Shown here in pieces: positions 3,005 to 35,194 of a stretch of DNA of 40,000 bases. This DNA is from an uncultured Candidatus Peribacteria bacterium. GTDB taxonomy: Bacteria; Patescibacteriota; Gracilibacteria; RBG-16-42-10. Location: the NCBI GenBank assembly GCA_964514565.1, contig CAZERA010000001.1:552080-592079 (forward strand), written 5' to 3'. The notes beneath the pieces are model-generated. The model worked only from the letters and a program-made list of their open reading frames with translations. It did no database searches and had not been told where the DNA came from. Each line of letters starts with the position of its first letter. Within the stretch, counting starts at the first letter, position 1. The translations under genes were made by a program, and so were the position numbers.

Positions 3005-4312
3005 ATGATGTCACGTTTATTGATAGGTGAATTGGGCAAAAAAACAGGTCAGATAGTCAGAATTGCTGGTTGGTTACACAACTATCGCGATTTAGGAAAA
3101 ATTGCTTTTGCGGTGGTGCGTGATCGTACTGGTACTATTCAATGTGTCTTGGATAAAGAAGTGAAAGATGTATTGGCTCATCATCAATTGGAGACCGTAT
3201 TGGGTATCGAGGGTCTACTAGTAGAAGATACCAAAAGCCATGCACTAGAAATCCAAGTGCATTCTGTGGAAATAATTGCGGCCGTGGATCAGGTACTGCC
3301 ATTTGAGATTCACAAGCCAGAGCTAGATGTACGATTGGATACTATGTTGGATCATCGTTTGGTATCACTTCGAAATTTAAAAACGCGATCAATCTTTCAA
3401 GCCCAAGCTCAACTACTACGCTATATGCGTGAGTATTTTGATCAACAAGCTTTTACCGAAATCAACACACCAAAGCTGATTGCTTTTCCAACCGAGGGCG
3501 GCTCTGAGATCTTTCCTGTGAAGTACTACGACCGTACTGCCTATTTGGCCCAGTCACCACAGTTTTATAAACAAATGATGGTGAGTGTTTTTGAAAGAGT
3601 ATACGAAATAGGTCATGCCTATCGAGCAGAGAACAGCAACACTAGTAGGCATCTTTCTGAGGTGATCATGGTGGATGCCGAGATGGGATTTATTGATTCT
3701 TGGCGTGATGTCGGCGCGGTTGCTGTCGGATTATTGCGCTATGCTATCGACAGTTTATGGCAGCATGATCAAGTTATCCTTGAGCTTTGGCCAGAGCTTA
3801 AAAAACCAATTATTCCTGAAAAGATTCCGGAGGTGACTGTAGAAGAATTACATCAATTGGTATTTGAACATACCAAGGAAGACTTCCGTAAAGAACCTGA
3901 TCCCTCACCTCAGGAAGAGAGATTTATTTGTGAATACTTCAAGAAGCAAACTGGCAGTGACGCTGTTTTGATCACAGAGTTTCCTTCATCAGATGCTAAG
4001 TTTTATCACTATATCAATCCTGACAAACCAGAGGTAGCTGATCGCGCCGATTTGCTATTTAAAGGCGTGGAGATTGCCACATTGTCTCGTCGAATCCATA
4101 GTTACCAACAACTGATTGCAACTGCAAAGGCAAAAGGAATTGATGTAAATAACCCAGGCCTTACTGATTACTTGCAAGCTTTCGCCTACGGTATGCCTCC
4201 AGAAGGAGGCTTCGGCATGGGGGTAGAAAGAATCACCCAAAAAATCTTCGACCTAGCTAACGTCAAAGAAGCATGTTTATTTCCTAGAGATGTACAGAGA
4301 CTAGCACCGTAA
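3005..4312 (+). CDS. aspS: Aspartyl-tRNA synthetase, archaeal/eukaryal-type (class IIb, ~435 aa)
   Basis: N-terminal OB-fold signature VRIAGWLHNYRDLGKIAFAVVRDRTGTIQCV. AspRS-specific LAQSPQFYKQMM. Motif 2 GHAYRAENSNTSRHLSE. Motif 3 GGFGMGVERI. I place the start at ATG 3005 because the track's TTG at 2900 lies inside the T-box leader. Confidence 0.9.
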   Translation: MMSRLLIGELGKKTGQIVRIAGWLHNYRDLGKIAFAVVRDRTGTIQCVLDKEVKDVLAHHQLETVLGIEGLLVEDTKSHALEIQVHSVEIIAAVDQVLPFEIHKPELDVRLDTMLDHRLVSLRNLKTRSIFQAQAQLLRYMREYFDQQAFTEINTPKLIAFPTEGGSEIFPVKYYDRTAYLAQSPQFYKQMMVSVFERVYEIGHAYRAENSNTSRHLSEVIMVDAEMGFIDSWRDVGAVAVGLLRYAIDSLWQHDQVILELWPELKKPIIPEKIPEVTVEELHQLVFEHTKEDFRKEPDPSPQEERFICEYFKKQTGSDAVLITEFPSSDAKFYHYINPDKPEVADRADLLFKGVEIATLSRRIHSYQQLIATAKAKGIDVNNPGLTDYLQAFAYGMPPEGGFGMGVERITQKIFDLANVKEACLFPRDVQRLAP

Positions 4313-4314
4313 AG

Positions 4315-4396
4315 TTAGGTCAGAGGTACGAGTTCAGAGGGCAGAGGTAGGAATTCAATCCACAACCTTTGCCCTCGCACCTCTGCCCTTTGACCT
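4315..4396. repeat. Composite palindrome 'D': inverted arrays of degenerate heptamers (CAGAGGT-like) between convergent genes
   Basis: Left arm: GGT CAGAGGT ACGAGTT CAGAGGG CAGAGGT AGG (4318-4351). Right arm 4366-4395 reverse-complements to GGTCAAAGGGCAGAGGTGCGAGGGCAAAGG. The element fills the whole gap between the aspS stop (4312) and the stop of 4402..6831. Its first 17 nt recur at 35013-35029. Confidence 0.6.
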
Positions 4397-6938: not shown

Positions 6939-7832
6939 CTATTCTAGCATTTCTTCCAATATTTCATTCACAACCGCCAGACTGCCATCATTGGTCACTA
7001 CGACATCATAGCTATCACTATAGATCTCAATATTCTTTTCCACTTCTTGATTGAGAAAACCGACCTTGATAATTTCTTTGTAATCAAAACCATCGGCCAT
7101 CCCTACGTCACCCATGCTGTCACCTAGCAATAAAATATTTTTGCGCTCTTTGATCGTTTCAAAAACTGGGAAATTCTTCACGACAACTTCGTGTTTATTG
7201 AGTGAGTGGATAATCGGTTCGTTTATTTTTACCGCATTGCCTTCAGCATCGAACTGATAAAGATTGGCGATTACATGCACGTTGTTACGTAATAATCCTT
7301 CGTGCCGGAGATGTTCGATCAACATATCACCAGGCGCAGCCGACATGATGATTAAAGGAATCTGATGTTTTTCTAGTAGATCAATAAACTCTTTCACTTG
7401 GTCACGAAATTGCAGTGTGCTATTGAGTACCACATCATTGATTACATCACGGTTGAAGCCAGATTGCTCAAGTAAAGCAAAATGCTTTTGCCACCAAGTC
7501 AGCATATCCAAATTACGTTCAGCCAAAGAAAGCGTATTGTCGCGTTCGATTGGAGCATAATGATCAAATAAAGCTTGTGCGGCAGCTGGGTAATCAGGTG
7601 TCAGATATTTCCCTTTGCGTAGCTGTCCAATAATTGATGGAGCTTTCTCACCATTCACATATGCTCGAGTCAAAGTATTATCAAAATCAGCAATCACATG
7701 AAACTGACTAGCCCCATCTCGTCTAATACTTAGTTTGCTGACCTCTAATCGCTCTGGATGAGGAGTAACTATTGCTGAATTAGCCGGGATATTTTGATCG
7801 CTCATAGGGAGATTTACTGCTAAAAGTAGCAT
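6939..7832 (-). CDS. HAD-superfamily pyrimidine 5'-nucleotidase, cN-III/UMPH-1 type
   Basis: DFDNTLT nucleophile motif. IPLIIMSAAPGDMLIEHL, FDAEGNAVKINEPIIHSLNKHE and LLGDSMGDVGMADG parallel the human NT5C3 motifs as I recall them. ATG 7805 (MSDQN...) is an alternative start. Confidence 0.7.
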   Translation of the reverse strand: MLLLAVNLPMSDQNIPANSAIVTPHPERLEVSKLSIRRDGASQFHVIADFDNTLTRAYVNGEKAPSIIGQLRKGKYLTPDYPAAAQALFDHYAPIERDNTLSLAERNLDMLTWWQKHFALLEQSGFNRDVINDVVLNSTLQFRDQVKEFIDLLEKHQIPLIIMSAAPGDMLIEHLRHEGLLRNNVHVIANLYQFDAEGNAVKINEPIIHSLNKHEVVVKNFPVFETIKERKNILLLGDSMGDVGMADGFDYKEIIKVGFLNQEVEKNIEIYSDSYDVVVTNDGSLAVVNEILEEMLE

Positions 7833-11852: not shown

Positions 11853-13334
11853 ATGCAATTAGGAATGCAAATGAGACAGCAAATAGAGTTGAGTCAGAGA
11901 ACTGAATTGAATGATCCTGATAAAGGGCGACTTGAAGCTGCTTTTGAGTTATGGGAAGCTGGAACGAAGATCGACTTTTCAGTGCCAGTGGAGACTTTGA
12001 AAACAATTTTTGGTGGAGGCGATTCAGCTAAAACTGGGCAACCAAAAGATCCGAATGAATCACTCATTGATTCAGAATGGCGTGAGCAGTTTGTGATGAT
12101 TAGTCCGGCTGATATGGCTAGAATAAGTGATGGCGAGAAATTCGCAGTTTTGTTAGGCCACTGTATCTTTGTATCAACTGAAACTCCTGCTGATTATATA
12201 CCACTAGGAGTTTTGAATCTGGCAGCTGCACGTCGGGCTCGAGACCATAGTGCTTTTGCTCAGCTTTTAAAAGAGCGGGGACTAAGTGCAGATTATGCTA
12301 GGCATTACACTGCTACACTAACTGATGTTTTAGCTGCGCAATATTTATTTAGAGACAAACCAGCTCAGTTAGCTGAATTTTTGCATTGGAGAAAGTCAGT
12401 AGAAAGAACTGATTTTTTTAATGATGAGACTGTTGGGAAGATTCTTTCTGAAAGATTGCAAACACGAGCAAGAGCTCGTCAGCTTCACCCTACTGAACGT
12501 GGGAAGTATGCAAAGCGATCATTTACTTTGGCAGTGGCTGTTGATGTGACGATGACGCGAGGAGAGATTGATCAGGTCGTCAAAGACTTTGGAATTACTA
12601 AAGCAGATATTATTATGGGTAGGCTAAAAGATGAACCTACCTTTGATGTGTCATTAATGGTGGAGGCTATTGATGCTATTGTAAGAAAGATACGAGAAAT
12701 GTTAGTTACTCAAAGAAATATGGCAAAGAACAAGAAGATTATCACACTCACTAGTAGTCAGAGTGTTCAAGCATACCTTTTGACCAGTGATATTTGTGGA
12801 GCTTCCAATATTCTGGAAGCAACCTCTAGTTCAAATGCTTTCTTAGCAAAATCAAATGCTATTTCTTCACTCACAGCTTTGAAAGACAGACTACTATATT
12901 TAAGCAGGCAAGCTCTAGCAAGGATAGTCCCAGAGAGCAACGATATGGCGTTATTGCGAGCATTAGTAATTGGCACAAAACAACTTGAGCCATTACCAGA
13001 GTTAGAGAAAACAGTTCCAGCTGATGAATCTACAGGCAATACCACATTGGCAAAGATTGGGACCAAGCGTGACGAGCTCAATCGCCGCATGAGTGAAGCC
13101 GAAGCGCTATTGGGTCAATACGCTCAGGTAGAAAAAGCTTTTGCTGATTTAGGTGCCAAGGAAGCAGTACCTGGTGTGCTAGCTCAGGATCGCCAAAGAA
13201 TTCAAGCTCATTTGGAAGCAATAAAAGCACAATTTGCTGATTTGGAACGTTACGAAGGAGCATTGGGCAGCTTAGCGGAAGTAAGAACAAGGTTTAGTAG
13301 CCTATTTGCTCAACTTGATCGTCCGGCTGATTAA
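11853..13334 (+). CDS. Hypothetical protein (493 aa), coiled-coil C-terminus
   Basis: Long uninterrupted ORF. No motif recognised. The C-terminal ~90 aa are heptad-like (EAEALLGQYAQVEKAFADL...). Confidence 0.55.
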   Translation: MQLGMQMRQQIELSQRTELNDPDKGRLEAAFELWEAGTKIDFSVPVETLKTIFGGGDSAKTGQPKDPNESLIDSEWREQFVMISPADMARISDGEKFAVLLGHCIFVSTETPADYIPLGVLNLAAARRARDHSAFAQLLKERGLSADYARHYTATLTDVLAAQYLFRDKPAQLAEFLHWRKSVERTDFFNDETVGKILSERLQTRARARQLHPTERGKYAKRSFTLAVAVDVTMTRGEIDQVVKDFGITKADIIMGRLKDEPTFDVSLMVEAIDAIVRKIREMLVTQRNMAKNKKIITLTSSQSVQAYLLTSDICGASNILEATSSSNAFLAKSNAISSLTALKDRLLYLSRQALARIVPESNDMALLRALVIGTKQLEPLPELEKTVPADESTGNTTLAKIGTKRDELNRRMSEAEALLGQYAQVEKAFADLGAKEAVPGVLAQDRQRIQAHLEAIKAQFADLERYEGALGSLAEVRTRFSSLFAQLDRPAD

Positions 13335-13380
13335 TGGTGAGTCCACTGTTGATTGGGTACCACTGATAGCCTTACGTTAC

Positions 13381-13470
13381 CCTTCAGCCGAGCATCCTGA
13401 CCCCGCACAGCGGGCGGAAGGATCCTGCCCCATCTCTCGTTCCTTCTCCCTTCTTCCTCCTCCCTCACGC
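13381..13470. repeat. Left inverted repeat of the GIY-YIG cassette
   Basis: Contains the hairpin ATCCT-GA-CCCGC-ACA-GCGGG-CGGA-AGGAT (13394-13423) followed by a polypyrimidine tract (13427-13467). Its reverse complement aligns with 13946-14028. Confidence 0.7.
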
Positions 13471-13524
13471 AAGCCAATAGCCCAAAGAAACAAGCATGTT
13501 GTACCATGTATGTGGGCCTACTCT

Positions 13525-13854
13525 TCAAAGCCCCATACTTTCTTTGTATTCCACGAAGTCAGTTTGCTCAACATATCCTAGGTCATACCACTTAGGATTC
13601 TCTTCTTCAATCAGTGCTACTTTTCTGGATCGTCGCCATCCTTTCAATTGCCGTTCGCGAGTGAATGCTTCTTTGCGGGTCTCATAAATCTCAAAGTAGA
13701 CTAGTTTAGTCACATGGTACCTATGACTGAAGCCTTTATTGCGATGTGCTTTGTGTTCTAAAGTCCGTCTACTCAAGCTATTAGTATGGCCGATATAAAT
13801 TACTTTGGATTGGCTAGCCATCATATAGACATAGAACTCTTGGTTGTTTTTCAT
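13525..13854 (-). CDS. GIY-YIG nuclease family protein (COG2827 / YhbQ-like, stand-alone)
   Basis: FYVYMMASQSKVIYIGHTNSLSRRTLEHK...RYHVTKLVYFEIYETRKEAFTRERQLKGWRRSRKVALIEEENPKW carries the GIY...YIG, R, E and KGW.R.KK motifs of this family. The C-terminal ~20 aa probably read through into flanking sequence. Confidence 0.85.
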   Translation of the reverse strand: MKNNQEFYVYMMASQSKVIYIGHTNSLSRRTLEHKAHRNKGFSHRYHVTKLVYFEIYETRKEAFTRERQLKGWRRSRKVALIEEENPKWYDLGYVEQTDFVEYKESMGL

Positions 13855-13945
13855 TGGTATAATTACTTGCTTTATATGCTAGCGGGGTAATTATGAAATA
13901 GTGAGTGAACTGAAAGGGGGACAAAAAAGAGGGGCGAGGGATGGG

Positions 13946-14028
13946 GCGTGGGAAAGGAATAAGGAGGGAAGGAGAGGGGCATGATCCTTCTCCCGCTTGT
14001 GCGGGATCAGGATGGCTCAGGGGAAGGA
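13946..14028. repeat. Right inverted repeat of the GIY-YIG cassette
   Basis: A polypurine tract (13946-13979) is followed by the hairpin ATCCT-TCT-CCCGC-TTGT-GCGGG-ATC-AGGAT (13984-14013). A further purine-rich module lies just outside, at 14029-14050. Confidence 0.7.
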
Positions 14029-14099
14029 GGGAGAAGGAATGAGGTGTTGCGTTTGGGGAGGCATACGCTAGGATAGGAATCGATTGTAATCGTATCACT

Positions 14100-14606
14100 A
14101 TGGATTTGGAGATTGAACGGAAATGGTTTGTGGCTGCTTTACCAGATTTGAGTCTGCTCAAACCTTGGCATGATGAAAGATACTATTTGTATAGTGATGA
14201 AGAGCGTTCGATTCGTTTTCAAAAACGGGAGACGTTCTTTGAGATTGAACGGATGGAAAGTATTTCTAGTCTTTCACGCAAACAAGAAAAGGTGTTGATT
14301 ACCGAGATGGAATTTGAAGCTTTGAAAAAGATTGCCAAAGGCCCGCTAGATCGGGATAGCTATTTGTTACAAAATGAACCACAGCTCACACTCAAGCTCT
14401 ACCATGGACCCTTTCATGGTTTGATTCGGGCAGAGGTAGAATTTACTAGTGAAGCACAAGCTAAAGCTTTTATCCCATTGCCTTGGTTTTCCCATGAAAT
14501 AGATGGTCAGTGTCCGCTCGGACGCGACTCAGTATTGGTAAATCTATCTCACGAACAATTCACTGCATTGCTACTTAAATATCAGGTACCCCAGCTAGGT
14601 TATTAG
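14100..14606 (+). CDS. CYTH-domain protein (second copy, 168 aa)
   Basis: N-terminal LEIERKW matches the ExExK signature. The later FEIERME and RAEVEF acidic strands fit the fold. Confidence 0.6.
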   Translation: MDLEIERKWFVAALPDLSLLKPWHDERYYLYSDEERSIRFQKRETFFEIERMESISSLSRKQEKVLITEMEFEALKKIAKGPLDRDSYLLQNEPQLTLKLYHGPFHGLIRAEVEFTSEAQAKAFIPLPWFSHEIDGQCPLGRDSVLVNLSHEQFTALLLKYQVPQLGY

Positions 14607-15598: not shown

Positions 15599-16780
15599 TC
15601 AACCTTGGTGGGCGATTCGTCGTACTGCGCGATCAATATTATTCATGGCAGCCACTGGATGATAGTGGCCCACGTTGTCCTCAGGAAAAGCGATTGGTAA
15701 TAGTCCGTGGGTTTGCGCTTGTAAAAGTGTTTGGCTTACTTGATGGCGGCTGGTGTCCATTCTTACCAACTGAGGTGATTTGTTCAAAACACTGCCTACT
15801 ATTTTTCTGACGGATGATCCGACACCTAGGATCTGATCTATTTTTGCCCAGTCCAACTCGTTAAAAAGCATTACCAAGGTCAACAAAGCCTCGCCATTGT
15901 CCGTTTTGGTATCCGCAGCAATTACTTTGCTGCTTTTAATTTTCTCAGTCATTTCTTGAGGGCCAAAAGTAGCCAAAGCTCCCCATAAATAAGGCTCAAG
16001 TCTATCAATTACTGCTTTTTGTACTAAATATGAAATTGCTTCTTGGTCAAAATCGGTGCGGTAAAAAAGTTTTCCTAGCAGTAACAGATCATTTTCTATT
16101 TGTTCTCTGGTAGCAGTATCCAAGAAAGTATCCAACACAAGCTGTAGTGGATCCGTGATTTTAGCTCCAGCCCTCTGCATCTTTTGATAGATCTCTTCTC
16201 TGAGATTAGTTGGTACTATACTTTCTAAATAACGCCTCCAAAGCATAAAGGCAATGGTAACACCAGGCACTCCTTGCTCAAGCAAAATATTGCCGTGCCA
16301 AAATCGATGAAAGGGAGAGAATGCCGGAGTATCCAAGCGGTCCTTGTCTGGTGCATGCAGCACATCAGCAAATAAGAGTCTACCGCTATAGTGCAGGCAA
16401 TCACTGAGCTCACGGGGCAGGTTGGTAGCTAGTAGGCGTATCCCTTGCTTGTGGGTCTCTGAACTTTTGCCAGCAAAGATCAGACTAGCTGCTTGTTCTA
16501 CAAAAGCAGTTTTCCCTTTGGGGACGCGGGGTATCTTGAGGTATTCAGAGTCGTGCCACTCGTTTTCGATAGTGCTACTAATCGCAAAAGGTGTATCAGT
16601 AGCAAGTACTCGCGCCTTTATGTGGGCAGCAGGAAAAGGCCTCCATTGTTTCTTGATGCCACGAGCAAGAGGTCTAATTCGTTCACGCATCAGTCTTTGA
16701 ATAGGCTCGAAATCGGTGATGATCGTATCCACCAAATCAGTTATTTCAACAACATCATCGATGTCAGCTAGACGAATCAT
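15599..16780 (-). CDS. Hypothetical protein (393 aa from ATG 16780)
   Basis: Long ORF. The track's GTG start at 16936 would translate palindromic element B, so I trimmed it to MIRLADIDD.... No motif recognised. Confidence 0.55.
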   Translation of the reverse strand: MIRLADIDDVVEITDLVDTIITDFEPIQRLMRERIRPLARGIKKQWRPFPAAHIKARVLATDTPFAISSTIENEWHDSEYLKIPRVPKGKTAFVEQAASLIFAGKSSETHKQGIRLLATNLPRELSDCLHYSGRLLFADVLHAPDKDRLDTPAFSPFHRFWHGNILLEQGVPGVTIAFMLWRRYLESIVPTNLREEIYQKMQRAGAKITDPLQLVLDTFLDTATREQIENDLLLLGKLFYRTDFDQEAISYLVQKAVIDRLEPYLWGALATFGPQEMTEKIKSSKVIAADTKTDNGEALLTLVMLFNELDWAKIDQILGVGSSVRKIVGSVLNKSPQLVRMDTSRHQVSQTLLQAQTHGLLPIAFPEDNVGHYHPVAAMNNIDRAVRRIAHQG

Positions 16781-16849
16781 GTGCGGAAGAAATTGTTGAT
16801 AAGTTGGGATAGTAGTTTTTTTAGTGAGAGAATACAAGTTTGAGCTTGT

Positions 16850-16970
16850 GAGGTAAAAAGTAAGAAGTAAGAGATAAAAAGTTTGTGAGCTGGGGGAGCG
16901 GTCACATCGACACTTGTCGAGACTTAGCCCATACACTTCTTACCTCTTCCATTTTACCTCTTACCCCTCT
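16850..16970. repeat. Composite palindrome 'B': GARGTAA heptamer array, GC hairpin core, inverted pyrimidine array
   Basis: Left arm: GAGGTAA AAAGTAA GAAGTAA GAGATAA (16850-16877). Core hairpin: TCGACA-CT-TGTCGA (16907-16920). Right arm: CTTCTTACCTCTTCCATTTTACCTCTTACCCCTC (16936-16969). It shares a 17-mer and an 11-mer with element C. Confidence 0.6.
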
Positions 16971-24234: not shown

Positions 24235-24269
24235 AGTTTTTTTCTTAGTGACGTTATTCTATACGCTTT

Positions 24270-24392
24270 GGAGGGAAAAAGTAAGAAGTAAGTGGTAAGA
24301 AATGTAAATGCTTGTTGTCCACTTGCGTGGAGGGCATGGTATTTCTCCCGCTAAAAGACTTTTTACCTCTTCCCTCTTACTTTTTACCTCCC
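24270..24392. repeat. Composite palindrome 'C', sister of element B, with a core related to the GIY-YIG inverted repeat
   Basis: Left arm 24270-24304 contains AAAAAGTAAGAAGTAAG, identical to 16855-16871. Core hairpin: TCCAC-TTGC-GTGGA (24318-24331). GGAGGGCATGGTATTTCTCCCGC (24329-24351) resembles 13971-13996. Right arm 24359-24392 contains TTACCTCTTCC, identical to 16940-16950. Confidence 0.6.
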
Positions 24393-24427
24393 ATCTAAGC
24401 TATGTTGTTGTCATCAACAACATCTCT

Positions 24428-28448: not shown

Positions 28449-28571
28449 TCTGATATAGTGAATAATGAATGATGAAAAACTAATAGTTTAGCGATATGCA
28501 GTCCGTCAAGCGGAGACGGCAGTCACTAAACTTTTCACTACTCATTATTAATTATTCACTCCCTTTCTCAT
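28438..28571 (+). repeat. Element 'F' copy 1: ~134-bp internally palindromic repeat
   Basis: Aligns without gaps to 29032-29153 with about 15 mismatches in ~122 nt by hand count. The 5' arm AGTGAATAATGAATGATGAAAA pairs imperfectly with the 3' arm TTTTCACTACTCATTATTAATTATTCACT. Inner half-sites are AGTTTAGCG / CACTAAACT, and the central hairpin is CCGTC-AAGCGGA-GACGG. It overlaps the MarR stop and the DUF1801 ATG. Confidence 0.75.
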
Positions 28572-29022: not shown

Positions 29023-29153
29023 GAGGAGGGGCTGATGGAGTGAACAATGAATGATGAAAAACTAATAGTTTAGCGACATGCAGTCGGCCAAGCGGAGACT
29101 ATAGCCGCTAAACTTTTCACTATTCATTATTAGTTATTAACTCGCTTTCTCAT
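29021..29153 (+). repeat. Element 'F' copy 2
   Basis: Same orientation as copy 1. Inner half-sites AGTTTAGCG / CGCTAAACT are perfectly complementary here, while the central hairpin and outer stem are more degraded. Confidence 0.75.
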
Positions 29154-34227: not shown

Positions 34228-35016
34228 ATGTATTTCGAGCAGCTAAGAGAGCATCTGTTTGCCAACGTGGACTATCCAGAGTCTATGCGCGAAGTGATGG
34301 GCAAGATAACAGCTTGGCATCAATTTTGTGCTTTACCGAGTGAGACCAAAATGCTTTTTACCTATCCTGATGATCAAGGTGTTTGGGATGCTGGTTATAA
34401 GAATCGTCGCAAGGCTGAGGGGCGAGAAGACAAAGAGTACATGCATTTCCATGGCAATTATCGCGATTTGCTTCAAAAATACGGCTTAGCAGAGTTGGTG
34501 GAAAAAGATCCTACCCTCAAAGCGATGTGGGATTTAGTTAGTGGCATCAGAACAGAAGCGGGTAAACTGATCACAGTTATTGCCACTGATCTTGACCAAC
34601 ATATACCCGGTTTAGCTAAGAATGTGGCTGATAGCACTGACCTAATGACGTTGCGATTTCTTCACTATACTCCAGAGGACGATCAGGATGATAATCTTGC
34701 TGCTGCTCATTTTGACCGGAGTGGTTTTACACTGCACTTATACGAAAATAAAAACGGTCTTCAACATCTTACGCTTGCTCATCAATGGGAAGATAGTCCA
34801 ATCGACAGCAACAACACTGTCGTATTTGCTGGCTACCAATTACAAGCAGAGAGTCGCGGTGAAATCAAAAATACTTGGCATCGTGTTATTCGAAAACATG
34901 ACACCCAAGTACAAGGTGATCGGTATTCATTAGTAGCATTTGTACCTTTCAAACACACACCTACGTATGATGCTAGCGCTCGTTCGCAAGATCTCAAGCC
35001 GGGATACCAAAATTAG
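34228..35016 (+). CDS. 2-oxoglutarate/Fe(II)-dependent oxygenase (isopenicillin-N-synthase-like)
   Basis: The HxD...H facial triad candidates are AAHFDRSGFTLHL and NTWHRV. RYSLVAFV supplies the 2OG-binding Arg-x-Ser. Confidence 0.65.
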   Translation: MYFEQLREHLFANVDYPESMREVMGKITAWHQFCALPSETKMLFTYPDDQGVWDAGYKNRRKAEGREDKEYMHFHGNYRDLLQKYGLAELVEKDPTLKAMWDLVSGIRTEAGKLITVIATDLDQHIPGLAKNVADSTDLMTLRFLHYTPEDDQDDNLAAAHFDRSGFTLHLYENKNGLQHLTLAHQWEDSPIDSNNTVVFAGYQLQAESRGEIKNTWHRVIRKHDTQVQGDRYSLVAFVPFKHTPTYDASARSQDLKPGYQN

Positions 35017-35170
35017 GTCAGAGGTACGATCCCGCCTCTGCGGGAAGAGATCAGAGATTTTTGGTGAGACCTGTTTTGGACTGCCCGTAAGGGCGTCATT
35101 CCAGCCCTGCACCAGCAGGGAGATGAATCTCAGTCAAACTGCAGCTGGGCCAAAAACGTCAGCCAATTAA
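35013..35170. repeat. Composite element 'E': shared 17-mer plus three GC hairpins between convergent genes
   Basis: TTAGGTCAGAGGTACGA (35013-35029) is identical to 4315-4331 and overlaps the TAG stop. Hairpins: TCCCGC-CTCT-GCGGGA (35030-35045), GCCC-GTAA-GGGC (35083-35094) and CCCTGC-ACCA-GCAGGG (35105-35120). Confidence 0.5.
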
Positions 35171-35194
35171 TGATCATGAACAATTTAGTTTGCT

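Follow-up and report, generated by a model that had tools for sequence, protein, structure and literature searches.

A small GIY-YIG nuclease gene between inverted hairpins in a Candidatus Peribacteria genome: a probable resident ssn locus with an extended class of recognition hairpin

Is a small nuclease gene enclosed by an inverted repeat a mobile cassette, or a resident gene kept together with the DNA it recognizes? The question is raised by positions 13381-14028 of a 40-kb window—by which we mean the whole stretch of 40,000 nucleotides analysed here, from contig CAZERA010000001.1 of an uncultured Candidatus Peribacteria bacterium—where a gene for a 109-aa GIY-YIG nuclease stands between two arms that each contain a hairpin. 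A first-pass annotation, made from the letters of the sequence, had read the unit as an undescribed, selfish mobile cassette. In our assessment it is probably a resident ssn locus, that is, the gene of a small GIY-YIG Ssn endonuclease bracketed by two inverted recognition hairpins (Ssn-related motifs, SRMs) in a host of the candidate phyla radiation (CPR); mobility of the unit is unsupported. What is new is an extended class of the hairpin, the CPR host, and a natural allele without the cassette, probably a deletion, with mapped junctions.

The architecture, and the central idea that such a nuclease acts on the hairpins around its own gene, were already published in 2025. SsnA of Neisseria meningitidis is the founding site-specific endonuclease of single-stranded DNA (ssDNA) (Chenal et al., Nat Commun 2025, PMC11893778), and with the Ssn family and its hairpin-ssnA-hairpin arrangement on record, the earlier statements that the cassette is undescribed and that such proteins have no defined role are out of date. 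SsnA has 94 aa and a single GIY-YIG domain; it binds the hairpin of the Neisseria Transformation Sequence (NTS) as ssDNA only, and on one strand only, and its cleavage site lies a few nucleotides upstream of the hairpin. Mutating Y6, Y17, or E64 abolishes its activity; in the DNA, the three nucleotides before the palindrome are critical for cleavage and the C after it for binding. Genes of the family are bracketed by inverted hairpins of 20-50 nt—at least one SRM is found near 71% of ssnA homologues, and SRMs on both sides in 42%—and gene-less SRM copies number up to hundreds per genome. In Neisseria, the hairpin-gene-hairpin arrangement lowers the integration of incoming DNA that carries the same arrangement; the authors portray SsnA as an ssDNA "restriction" mechanism acting on transforming DNA, and liken the unit to insertion sequences, IS200/IS605, and RAYT/REP (PMC11893778).

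In the window, the unit lies antisense within a 765-bp gap (13335-14099) between two + strand open reading frames (ORFs), 11853-13334 and 14100-14606, and the only domain-bearing ORF between the arms is the nuclease gene; both points agree with the first-pass annotation. Its CYTH label for the right neighbour (14100-14606) does not, as the protein has no CYTH or other Pfam hit even at E <= 5. The gene and its two hairpins are given below; R1 is a covariance model built from 65 hairpins and run over the 40-kb window.

13525..13854, - strand: ssn gene for a 109-aa single-domain GIY-YIG nuclease (Pfam PF01541, E = 4e-15; homology to SsnA)
13388..13429, + strand: downstream SRM hairpin, in the left arm (R1 39.5 bits, E about 1e-7; inverted repeat; fold)
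13978..14019, - strand: upstream SRM hairpin, in the right arm (R1 49 bits, E about 4e-10; fold -10.5 kcal/mol)

The left arm, 13381-13470, aligns over its full length with the reverse complement of 13946-14028, as had been noticed, with 71 of 93 positions identical and a score of 40 against -5.5 +/- 5.5 in 500 dinucleotide-preserving shuffles (z = 8.3). Most of this similarity lies in the hairpin halves (44/54, z = 7.9); the pyrimidine and purine tract halves match at 27/39 (z = 3.5), which one of the 500 shuffles equalled. An inverted-repeat search returned the core 13393-13431 / 13976-14014, which is 39 nt long and 82% complementary. The nested hairpins first annotated at 13394-13423 and 13984-14013 agree with the predicted fold, (((((..((((((....))))))..))))), and both arms take the same two-tier form, ATCCT-GA-(Y)CCCGC-loop-GCGGG(R)-GA-AGGAT; for the right arm the predicted energy is -10.5 kcal/mol, with z = -2.85. 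The window has three occurrences of the core CCCGC-N3-5-GCGGG, where 0.01 would be expected. In NTS-type orientation the left arm reads AGC-AT-CCTGA-CCCCGC-ACA-GCGGGC-GGAAGG-AT-C on the + strand (hairpin proper 13394-13423), and the right arm reads GCC-AT-CCTGA-TCCCGC-ACAA-GCGGGA-GAAGG-AT-C on the - strand (hairpin proper 13984-14013). In both, the 5' box faces away from the gene.

The nuclease itself ties the locus to the Ssn family. PF01541 spans residues 7-78 of the 109 and is the only Pfam hit even at E <= 5. A tblastn search of a plasmid collection matched mislabelled Neisseria gonorrhoeae chromosomes at 42-46% identity and E = 5e-17, below the E < 1e-10 that the Ssn paper uses as its homology threshold. 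The gonococcal match is a 94-aa ORF with ten copies of the NTS, CGTCATTCCCGCGMAVGCGGGAATCYRG, within 900 bp around it, and because of these ten repeats we take the gene to be ssnA; aligned pairwise, the window protein and N. gonorrhoeae SsnA are 46% identical over 87 aa (E = 6e-27), the comparison thus being with the gonococcal orthologue rather than with the N. meningitidis protein. The counterparts of the meningococcal Y6, Y17, and E64 are Y10, Y20, and E67; among the 13 homologues of alignment A2, Y20 and E67 do not vary, and conservation of Y10 is 90% or more. The first-pass label "YhbQ-type" was imprecise: the UPF0213/YhbQ-type structures 1ywl and 1zg2, the only solved structures in the PDB that match the window protein, do so at E = 2e-3 to 2e-2 with the single sequence and at 4e-9 with a family profile. 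Because the SsnA match is far stronger than the match to these structures, the protein appears to belong to the Ssn family rather than to the YhbQ type.

The window protein carries a C-terminal extension of about 15 aa that is common to Peribacteria homologues. The tails of many called homologues (P0002, P0005, P0037, P0041, and others in A2), for example GPSSRACGIQDDSSDR, are translation into the downstream hairpin, and annotated lengths of 120-150 aa therefore overstate the protein. Comparison with a relative's gene on contig L004, described below, gives dN/dS 0.036 at dS 0.66, a value that indicates strong purifying selection on ssn; the gene is an intact, selected Ssn homologue. NCBIfam holds no model for the nuclease or its neighbours, PADLOC gave no match for either, 50,697 phage records contained no homologue of the nuclease, and an exact look-up of the 109-aa sequence found it not to be on record. 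As for the host, the window's non-discriminating aspartyl-tRNA synthetase is 71% identical to one from Candidatus Abawacabacteria, its nearest named hit, with further hits in Parcubacteria, Saccharibacteria, and Peribacteria, and because of these hits we place the organism in the CPR.

The arms belong to a class of hairpin that the published definition misses. The NTS can be written as GTC-AT-TCCCGC-loop-GCGGGA-AT-C and the new class as GTC-AT-YCTGA-TCCCGC-loop-GCGGGA-GAAGR-AT-C; the latter inserts 5 nt on each side, and with them come an outer stem (ATYCT/AGRAT) and an internal loop of tandem G.A, whose GA/GA sequence is invariant. An alignment of 65 copies shows what the class retains: the GTC ahead of the palindrome, the closing AT...AT, and the C that follows. 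The interior of the hairpin varies freely and is sometimes just a GCGAAGC mini-hairpin, with the boxes GTCATYCTGAGCG and GAGTCGAAGGAYC constant. The variant GTCATYCTGA-stem-loop-stem-GAAGRATC is in this sense a new element.

Covariation in the same 65 sequences shows that the structure is constrained. Three pairs covary (UA 39 / CG 24, UA 48 / CG 11, and GC 5 / AU 4), 98.6% of cells are paired, and the covariation score was higher than in any of 500 shuffles; the search pattern itself dictated the five innermost pairs, which are hence uninformative here. The Y of ATYCT and the R of AGRAT covary perfectly, with 40 T/A, 21 C/G, and no T/G or C/A. The pattern is strand-asymmetric, with G.A on one strand and T/C on the other. 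Tandem sheared G.A pairs are stable, unlike the T/C mismatches of the complementary strand, and the asymmetry would fit recognition of one strand. In Rfam searches the window had no hit at the gathering score, the locus gave just noise when E was relaxed to <= 10, and four loci with canonical hairpins were also without a match; given this lack of a match, the hairpin corresponds to no described RNA family.

How widely do hairpin and gene occur together? A hairpin-anchored scan with CCCGS-N3-4-GCGGGR-N0-1-TCAGRATG across 185,579 species genomes gave at least 120 stretches. Among the matches listed, about half look like chance (43 of 59 of these lie in open frames), and at least 63 canonical copies share sequence beyond the pattern, gAGATYCTTCT before it and ACA after. 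The canonical copies listed come from Terriglobia, Verrucomicrobiota, Ignavibacteria, Patescibacteria, Gammaproteobacteria, and others; a further box lies within 330 nt of 28 of the 63. Since only 5 of the 120 listed stretches hold a GIY-YIG hit within 8 kb, the canonical copies are mostly gene-less. Gene-less copies, which the first-pass annotation had noted in the window, are thus widespread in other genomes.

A gene-anchored scan, in which metagenome contigs were searched with a profile, gave 80 loci with homologues at 44-58% identity. The 5' box GTCATYCTGA occurs there at 2.57 per kb within 250 nt of the gene and at 0.068 per kb further away, a 38-fold enrichment, and the new hairpin class flanks most of these close homologues. 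Boxes mostly face outward, being on the sense strand upstream at 36 loci and on the antisense strand downstream at 35, and stand on both sides of the gene in 30 of 71 loci. Many loci have two flanking SRMs that are near-identical, variable interiors included; the published SRM pattern matches the flanks at 5 of the 80 and misses the other 75. The nearest homologues on long contigs, from Candidatus Peribacteria (63% identity), sit in another gene neighbourhood with the same outward-facing arms, and the hairpin-gene-hairpin layout also appears in a gammaproteobacterial metagenome-assembled genome (MAG) and in a Planktothrix plasmid; at loci L001, L005, L023, and L007 hairpins flank both sides of the gene. 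Since these flanks recur around homologues from other phyla and from unrelated loci, hairpins and nuclease belong together: the arms are structurally constrained hairpins of the Ssn family, specifically associated with such genes. The first-pass annotation had proposed comparing the flanks of homologues and the orthologous sites of relatives; comparable flanks, enrichment beside the genes, and, as set out below, empty sites were all found.

Some of these loci have further features. L007, the Planktothrix agardhii plasmid NZ_LR882964.1 (1245-3473), has its 94-aa homologue (48% identity) flanked by the DISARM gene drmA and a restriction-modification gene of MmeI type; arrays of SRM hairpins lie on both sides, and four more R1 hits fall inside the annotated MmeI coding region. 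In L008 (5680-6700, a Candidatus Gracilibacteria MAG) at least four copies or close variants of a short SRM, GTCATTCTGAGCGAAGCGAAGAATC, stand upstream of an ssn homologue; three of these have a d(GCGAAGC) mini-hairpin as interior and lie within repeats of about 100-190 nt. The upstream arms of two close Peribacteria loci, L005 (4832-4876) and L001 (4844-4876), differ inside the hairpin only: the L005 arm, GTCATCCTGA-CCCTGAGCTTGCCGAAGGG-GAAGGACC, looks like a short SRM nested in an SRM, and L001 has ACGAAGT instead. Downstream of the downstream arm that the two share, L001 has a 2.2-kb indel (a PMT_2 gene and a 194-aa gene), and their homology resumes about 210 nt (in L005) past that arm.

Empty sites are found in relatives with the same gene order. 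A first metagenome scan with the 493-aa left neighbour of the cassette found no relative; a protein search with the same neighbour gave homologues (86, 82, and 76% identity) on contigs with the same gene order, namely SNase, the 493-aa gene, a 168-aa gene, CutA1, and peptidase S51. These syntenic relatives (L128/L211, L129, and L130) are all without the GIY-YIG gene, and the gap measures 171, 177, and 81 bp in place of the 765 bp of the window. The L128 gap contains a single hairpin, AGCATCCTGACTCCGCACACGCGGGATCAGGATTGCT, which is identical in the independent assembly L211 and is a fusion of the two outer arm halves, left and right; pairwise alignment shows L128 collinear with the window to 13409, with collinearity resuming at about 14000.

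13410..14000, no strand: segment of about 591 bp missing in L128 and L211 (pairwise alignment; two independent assemblies)

Both junctions fall in the inner hairpin cores, at CCCGC-ACA/GCGGG and CCCGC-TTGT/GCGGG (the slash marks the junction). Each core is itself palindromic, so the inverted arms share direct repeats of 5-13 nt, and a simple deletion between direct repeats would therefore give exactly the L128 hybrid. L130 retains the right hairpin half only, and L129 nothing clear.

A filled site is found in L004, a 579-bp contig that has the downstream arm and encodes a protein 95% identical to the window nuclease. The contig runs out in the 493-aa neighbour gene, of which it has the stop codon and the final codons, and in the L004 lineage the cassette therefore occupies the position that it has in the window. 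Apart from an approximately 80% identical 5' region, the non-coding DNA of the cassette is barely alignable between L004 and the window, and the spacer outside the cassette is 66% identical; the cassette's non-coding DNA is thus as diverged as the flank (about 66% or less). This divergence, with dS 0.66 and dN/dS 0.036, argues for long vertical inheritance under strong purifying selection, with no recent transfer. The spacer identity of 81% for the window and L128, against 66% for the window and L004, points to L128 as the closer relative, from which the cassette was lost. Loss is favoured further by the hairpin forms, of which the canonical one is conserved everywhere and the hybrid is rare (one, to 227 canonical copies, across 1.16 Mb of fetched loci), by junctions that lie elsewhere than where an Ssn enzyme would be expected to cut (5' of the boxes), and by homologous flanks in 6 of the 7 gene pairs at 85% nucleotide identity or above among the 80 metagenome loci. 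On balance we think the polymorphism arose by deletion, with good but not strong confidence, and regard insertion as possible, though clearly the less likely route. The L128 hybrid was also considered as a common insertion target, and was rejected on its frequency of 1 to 227.

The remaining features of the gap are the following.

13855..13915, - strand: 5' region of ssn, likely its promoter and leader (inside the upstream hairpin; about 80% identity to L004)
13432..13466, no strand: inner polypyrimidine tract (a weak partner of 13946-13975; the matching 30 nt are missing in L004)
13915..13975, no strand: inner polypurine tract (read directly; low complexity; pairs 83% with 13427-13444)
14015..14050, + strand: outer purine tract (conserved at the L128 and L130 empty sites; within the leader of the 168-aa gene, and so flank rather than cassette)

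The promoter role of 13855..13915 is tentative: a promoter scan of the locus found no sigma-70 consensus. The polypurine and polypyrimidine tracts were considered as parts of the element and rejected, since the inner tract is missing in L004, the outer one is kept in empty sites, and similar tracts precede other genes; purine runs stand upstream of several, in L129 directly before an ECF sigma gene. They look like a trait of the lineage's intergenic DNA, outside the Ssn system.

Gene-less relics of the hairpin exist in the window and are sparse.

35092..35134, + strand: gene-less SRM-like hairpin, CGTCATTCCAG-CCCTGC-ACCA-GCAGGG-AGATGAATC (R1 20.8 bits, E about 0.005)
35028..35048, + strand: gene-less core hairpin, TCCCGC-CTCT-GCGGGA, without recognisable outer boxes (R1 17.9 bits, E about 0.03)
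24331..24351, + strand: half-SRM remnant, GGGCATGGTATTTCTCCCGC (differs from the right arm at no more than 4 of 21 positions)

The first two lie 50 nt apart between convergent genes (35017-35194), and the one at 35092-35134 had been overlooked at first. The half-site holds the 3'-box side and half a core without the partner half; it is missed by R1, and is the only such site in the window, with none arising in 30 shuffles. The first-pass annotation had listed core fragments in both regions: the half-arm match at 24331-24351 stands, and the one at 35030-35045 is marginal at its 17.9 bits. The half-site is enclosed by a palindrome, 24265-24393, that folds at -23.3 kcal/mol (z = -4.3). This palindrome and a second, 16844-16965, are each about 120-130 nt long, their left arms rich in purines (GGAGGGAAAAAGTAAGAAGTAAG...) and their right arms in pyrimidines, and are 83-84% identical to each other.

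If the window system works as SsnA does, its mechanism can be sketched. Uptake by competence, replication, recombination, or conjugation would expose single strands, and in such ssDNA the GTC-AT-YCTGA-stem-loop-stem-GAAGR-AT-C strand would fold into a hairpin stabilised by the tandem G.A loop. By analogy with SsnA, the protein would bind the GTC strand only and nick it a few nucleotides 5' of the box. As the boxes face outward on both sides, there would be one cleavable site per strand, 5' of the whole unit. Nicking would limit or shape the fate of incoming or exposed ssDNA with such hairpins, and control of this DNA is the most likely role here, again by analogy. We infer ssDNA-specific cleavage, the cut position, and the biological role of the window protein from its studied homologue; the first-pass suggestion that the hairpins are the nuclease's substrate likewise accords with the biochemistry of that homologue, for which such a hairpin is the ssDNA binding and cleavage signal (PMC11893778). 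The locus would be kept by selection and inherited at this site, and a sister lineage would have lost it by deletion between the palindromic hairpin cores, leaving one hybrid hairpin.

Several observations weigh against this reading. The critical GTC reads GCC in the right arm and AGC in the left, and cleavage may consequently be weak, specificity may be shifted, or binding may occur without efficient cutting. Neither the published NTS consensus nor the degenerate SRM pattern matches the arms, even with 2 substitutions; the SRM pattern as coded recovers 9 of the 10 gonococcal NTS copies, and the implementation thus works. The left arm is the more eroded and folds no better than shuffles (z = -0.9 to -1.5). 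Gene-less copies are few within the 40 kb—one SRM-like hairpin, one core, and one half-site—and a genome-wide role of the hairpins in this organism is therefore at most tentative. The direction of the indel is read from some 90 nt of spacer, on a contig of 579 bp. Synonymous divergence puts L004 and L128 about equally far from the window (window-L128 values run from 0.36 to 0.72 in different genes and do not settle the branching order), and one gain plus one loss is therefore as parsimonious as two gains.

Three other explanations have to be set against a resident ssn locus. In one, the unit is an active site-specific mobile element, IS-like or homing-like, that is cut by its own nuclease and enters and leaves precisely at the palindromic hairpin centre; the L128 hybrid would be an empty target or excision scar, and gene-less hairpins would be non-autonomous derivatives. 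The first-pass annotation leaned this way; we judge it unlikely. Terminal inverted repeats with outward boxes would place the predicted nicks just outside both ends, on opposite strands (cut position from PMC11893778), but the actual junctions lie in hairpin loops rather than at those sites, and coincide with direct repeats that are enough alone for a deletion. Presence and absence with clean junctions, and a cassette found in the window and L004 and not in the possibly closer L128, would be compatible with two insertions at the same site; however, the supposed target is the hybrid palindrome, the single one among so many canonical copies, and six of the seven close gene pairs share homologous flanks. 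The near-identity of flanking SRMs at many loci, the SRM nested in an SRM in L005, and the resemblance to insertion sequences raised by the Ssn authors themselves (PMC11893778) also speak for mobility. Against it are the divergence of the cassette's non-coding DNA and its selected gene, which indicate no recent transfer, and the lack of a transposase, integrase, or DNA-binding domain; no target-site duplication was found at the outer edges of the arms, as had been noticed at the start. We know of no GIY-YIG nuclease that rejoins DNA. The evidence leans against a selfish cassette; it is doubtful that the unit is, or recently was, self-mobilising through ssDNA nicks just outside both boxes with precise entry and exit at the hairpin centre. 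Were it so, bacteria would have their first IS-like element driven by a GIY-YIG nuclease, and the spread of the SRM hairpins would be accounted for.

Another explanation takes the locus for a defence module whose nuclease destroys foreign ssDNA (ssDNA phages, or conjugative and rolling-circle intermediates), the hairpins being only regulatory elements or decoys rather than genome-wide signals. The position of the Planktothrix homologue beside restriction-modification and DISARM genes would suit this, as would the description of SsnA as a "restriction" of transforming DNA (PMC11893778); however, the window neighbours are not defence genes, the PADLOC and phage searches came back empty, and the hairpin occurs in the host's own genome and in many others, which is not what a mark of invaders would do. 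We consider a defence module improbable. The hairpins might, lastly, be ordinary terminators or regulatory palindromes of the neighbours, with the GIY-YIG gene merely lying between them. This genome does have many purine/pyrimidine palindromes in its intergenic regions, and the outer right purine tract belongs to the neighbour's leader; yet a terminator scan found no site at either arm, no T-run follows either arm, no Rfam family matches, and the covariation is strand-asymmetric. With the same boxes flanking homologues in unrelated genomes and phyla at 38-fold local enrichment, coincidence is very improbable, and the enrichment and covariation effectively refute it.

Other observations in the window concern its repeats and neighbouring genes. 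A 21-mer, AAARTTAGGTCAGAGGTACGA, occurs at 4311-4331 and 35009-35029 (95% identical), where it overlaps or directly follows the stop codons of two + strand genes; each copy starts a long purine/pyrimidine hairpin, and the two may represent a terminator-like repeat family. A 122-nt direct repeat, 28450-28571 / 29032-29153 (88% identity, 582 nt spacing), beside tandem ORFs of 147 and 150 aa looks like a local tandem duplication. Pfam, NCBIfam, and PADLOC all gave nothing for the 445-aa ORF 15599-16936 on the - strand, which L128 shares with the window. L129 lacks it, having the ECF sigma gene immediately after peptidase S51; the difference is a second indel of the neighbourhood, ending at the purine/pyrimidine palindrome 16844-16965. 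The regions 1489-2739 and 6939-7832 carry a MATCAP (microtubule-associated tyrosine carboxypeptidase) domain (E = 1e-20) and a UMPH-1 pyrimidine 5'-nucleotidase (E = 9e-72), both eukaryote-associated domain names in an apparent CPR genome.

An Ssn nuclease and its hairpins are now placed in the CPR, whose organisms are thought to depend on taking up foreign DNA, and a nuclease that edits incoming single strands could matter for them. Because the published pattern misses the widespread GTCATYCTGA-hairpin-GAAGRATC class, counts of Ssn-associated repeats are probably underestimates. The class also adds a new enzyme and site pair to a family proposed as sequence-specific ssDNA cutting tools. Filled and empty natural alleles with mapped junctions provide a concrete test of whether hairpin-ssn-hairpin units are mobile or domesticated, a question raised by the discoverers of the family.

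Among known systems, the UPF0213/YhbQ proteins (PDB 1ywl, 1zg2) share with the window protein a stand-alone GIY-YIG domain of similar size, but the similarity is distant and far weaker than that to SsnA. Free-standing GIY-YIG homing endonucleases (phage T4 Seg proteins, the I-TevI family) share the catalytic domain, and presence or absence at a fixed site could arise by homing. Homing enzymes carry extra DNA-binding domains and cut double-stranded DNA; the window protein, in contrast, is a bare domain with no phage context, and its cassette is not more conserved than the flanks. Unlike an insertion sequence or a MITE (miniature inverted-repeat transposable element), the unit has no transposase domain and no edge duplication, and the shared flanks of six of seven close cassette pairs give no sign of multiple full copies or new insertions. 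IS200/IS605 elements resemble it in the one-strand ssDNA recognition of subterminal hairpins and in the lack of a target-site duplication; the window, however, has neither TnpA nor TnpB, and its ends are symmetric and inverted rather than distinct left and right ends.

RAYTs are domesticated transposases of the IS200/IS605 HUH Y1 type flanked by REP hairpins. Like the window locus, the RAYT/REP-REPIN system combines a single-copy gene in inverted hairpins with dispersed, often clustered gene-less copies, ssDNA hairpin recognition, vertical inheritance, and selective maintenance. The enzyme differs: in the window it is a GIY-YIG nuclease, and Pfam finds no HUH-Y1 (TnpA-like) protein between the repeats. 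To our knowledge, no strand-transfer chemistry has been described for a GIY-YIG nuclease of this kind. The Ssn/NTS-SRM system has, like the window, a single-domain GIY-YIG protein of about 100 aa (46% identity, same catalytic Y, Y, and E), inverted hairpins that bracket the gene, the core TCCCGC-N4-GCGGGA, GTC before the closing A-T pairs with C after, and gene-less copies elsewhere. What sets the window class apart is the 5 extra nt per side (YCTGA / GAAGR) with their outer stem and tandem G.A loop, boxes that face outward where the nearest NTS copies in N. gonorrhoeae face inward, the C-terminal extension of about 15 aa, the CPR host, and a low hairpin copy number in 40 kb.

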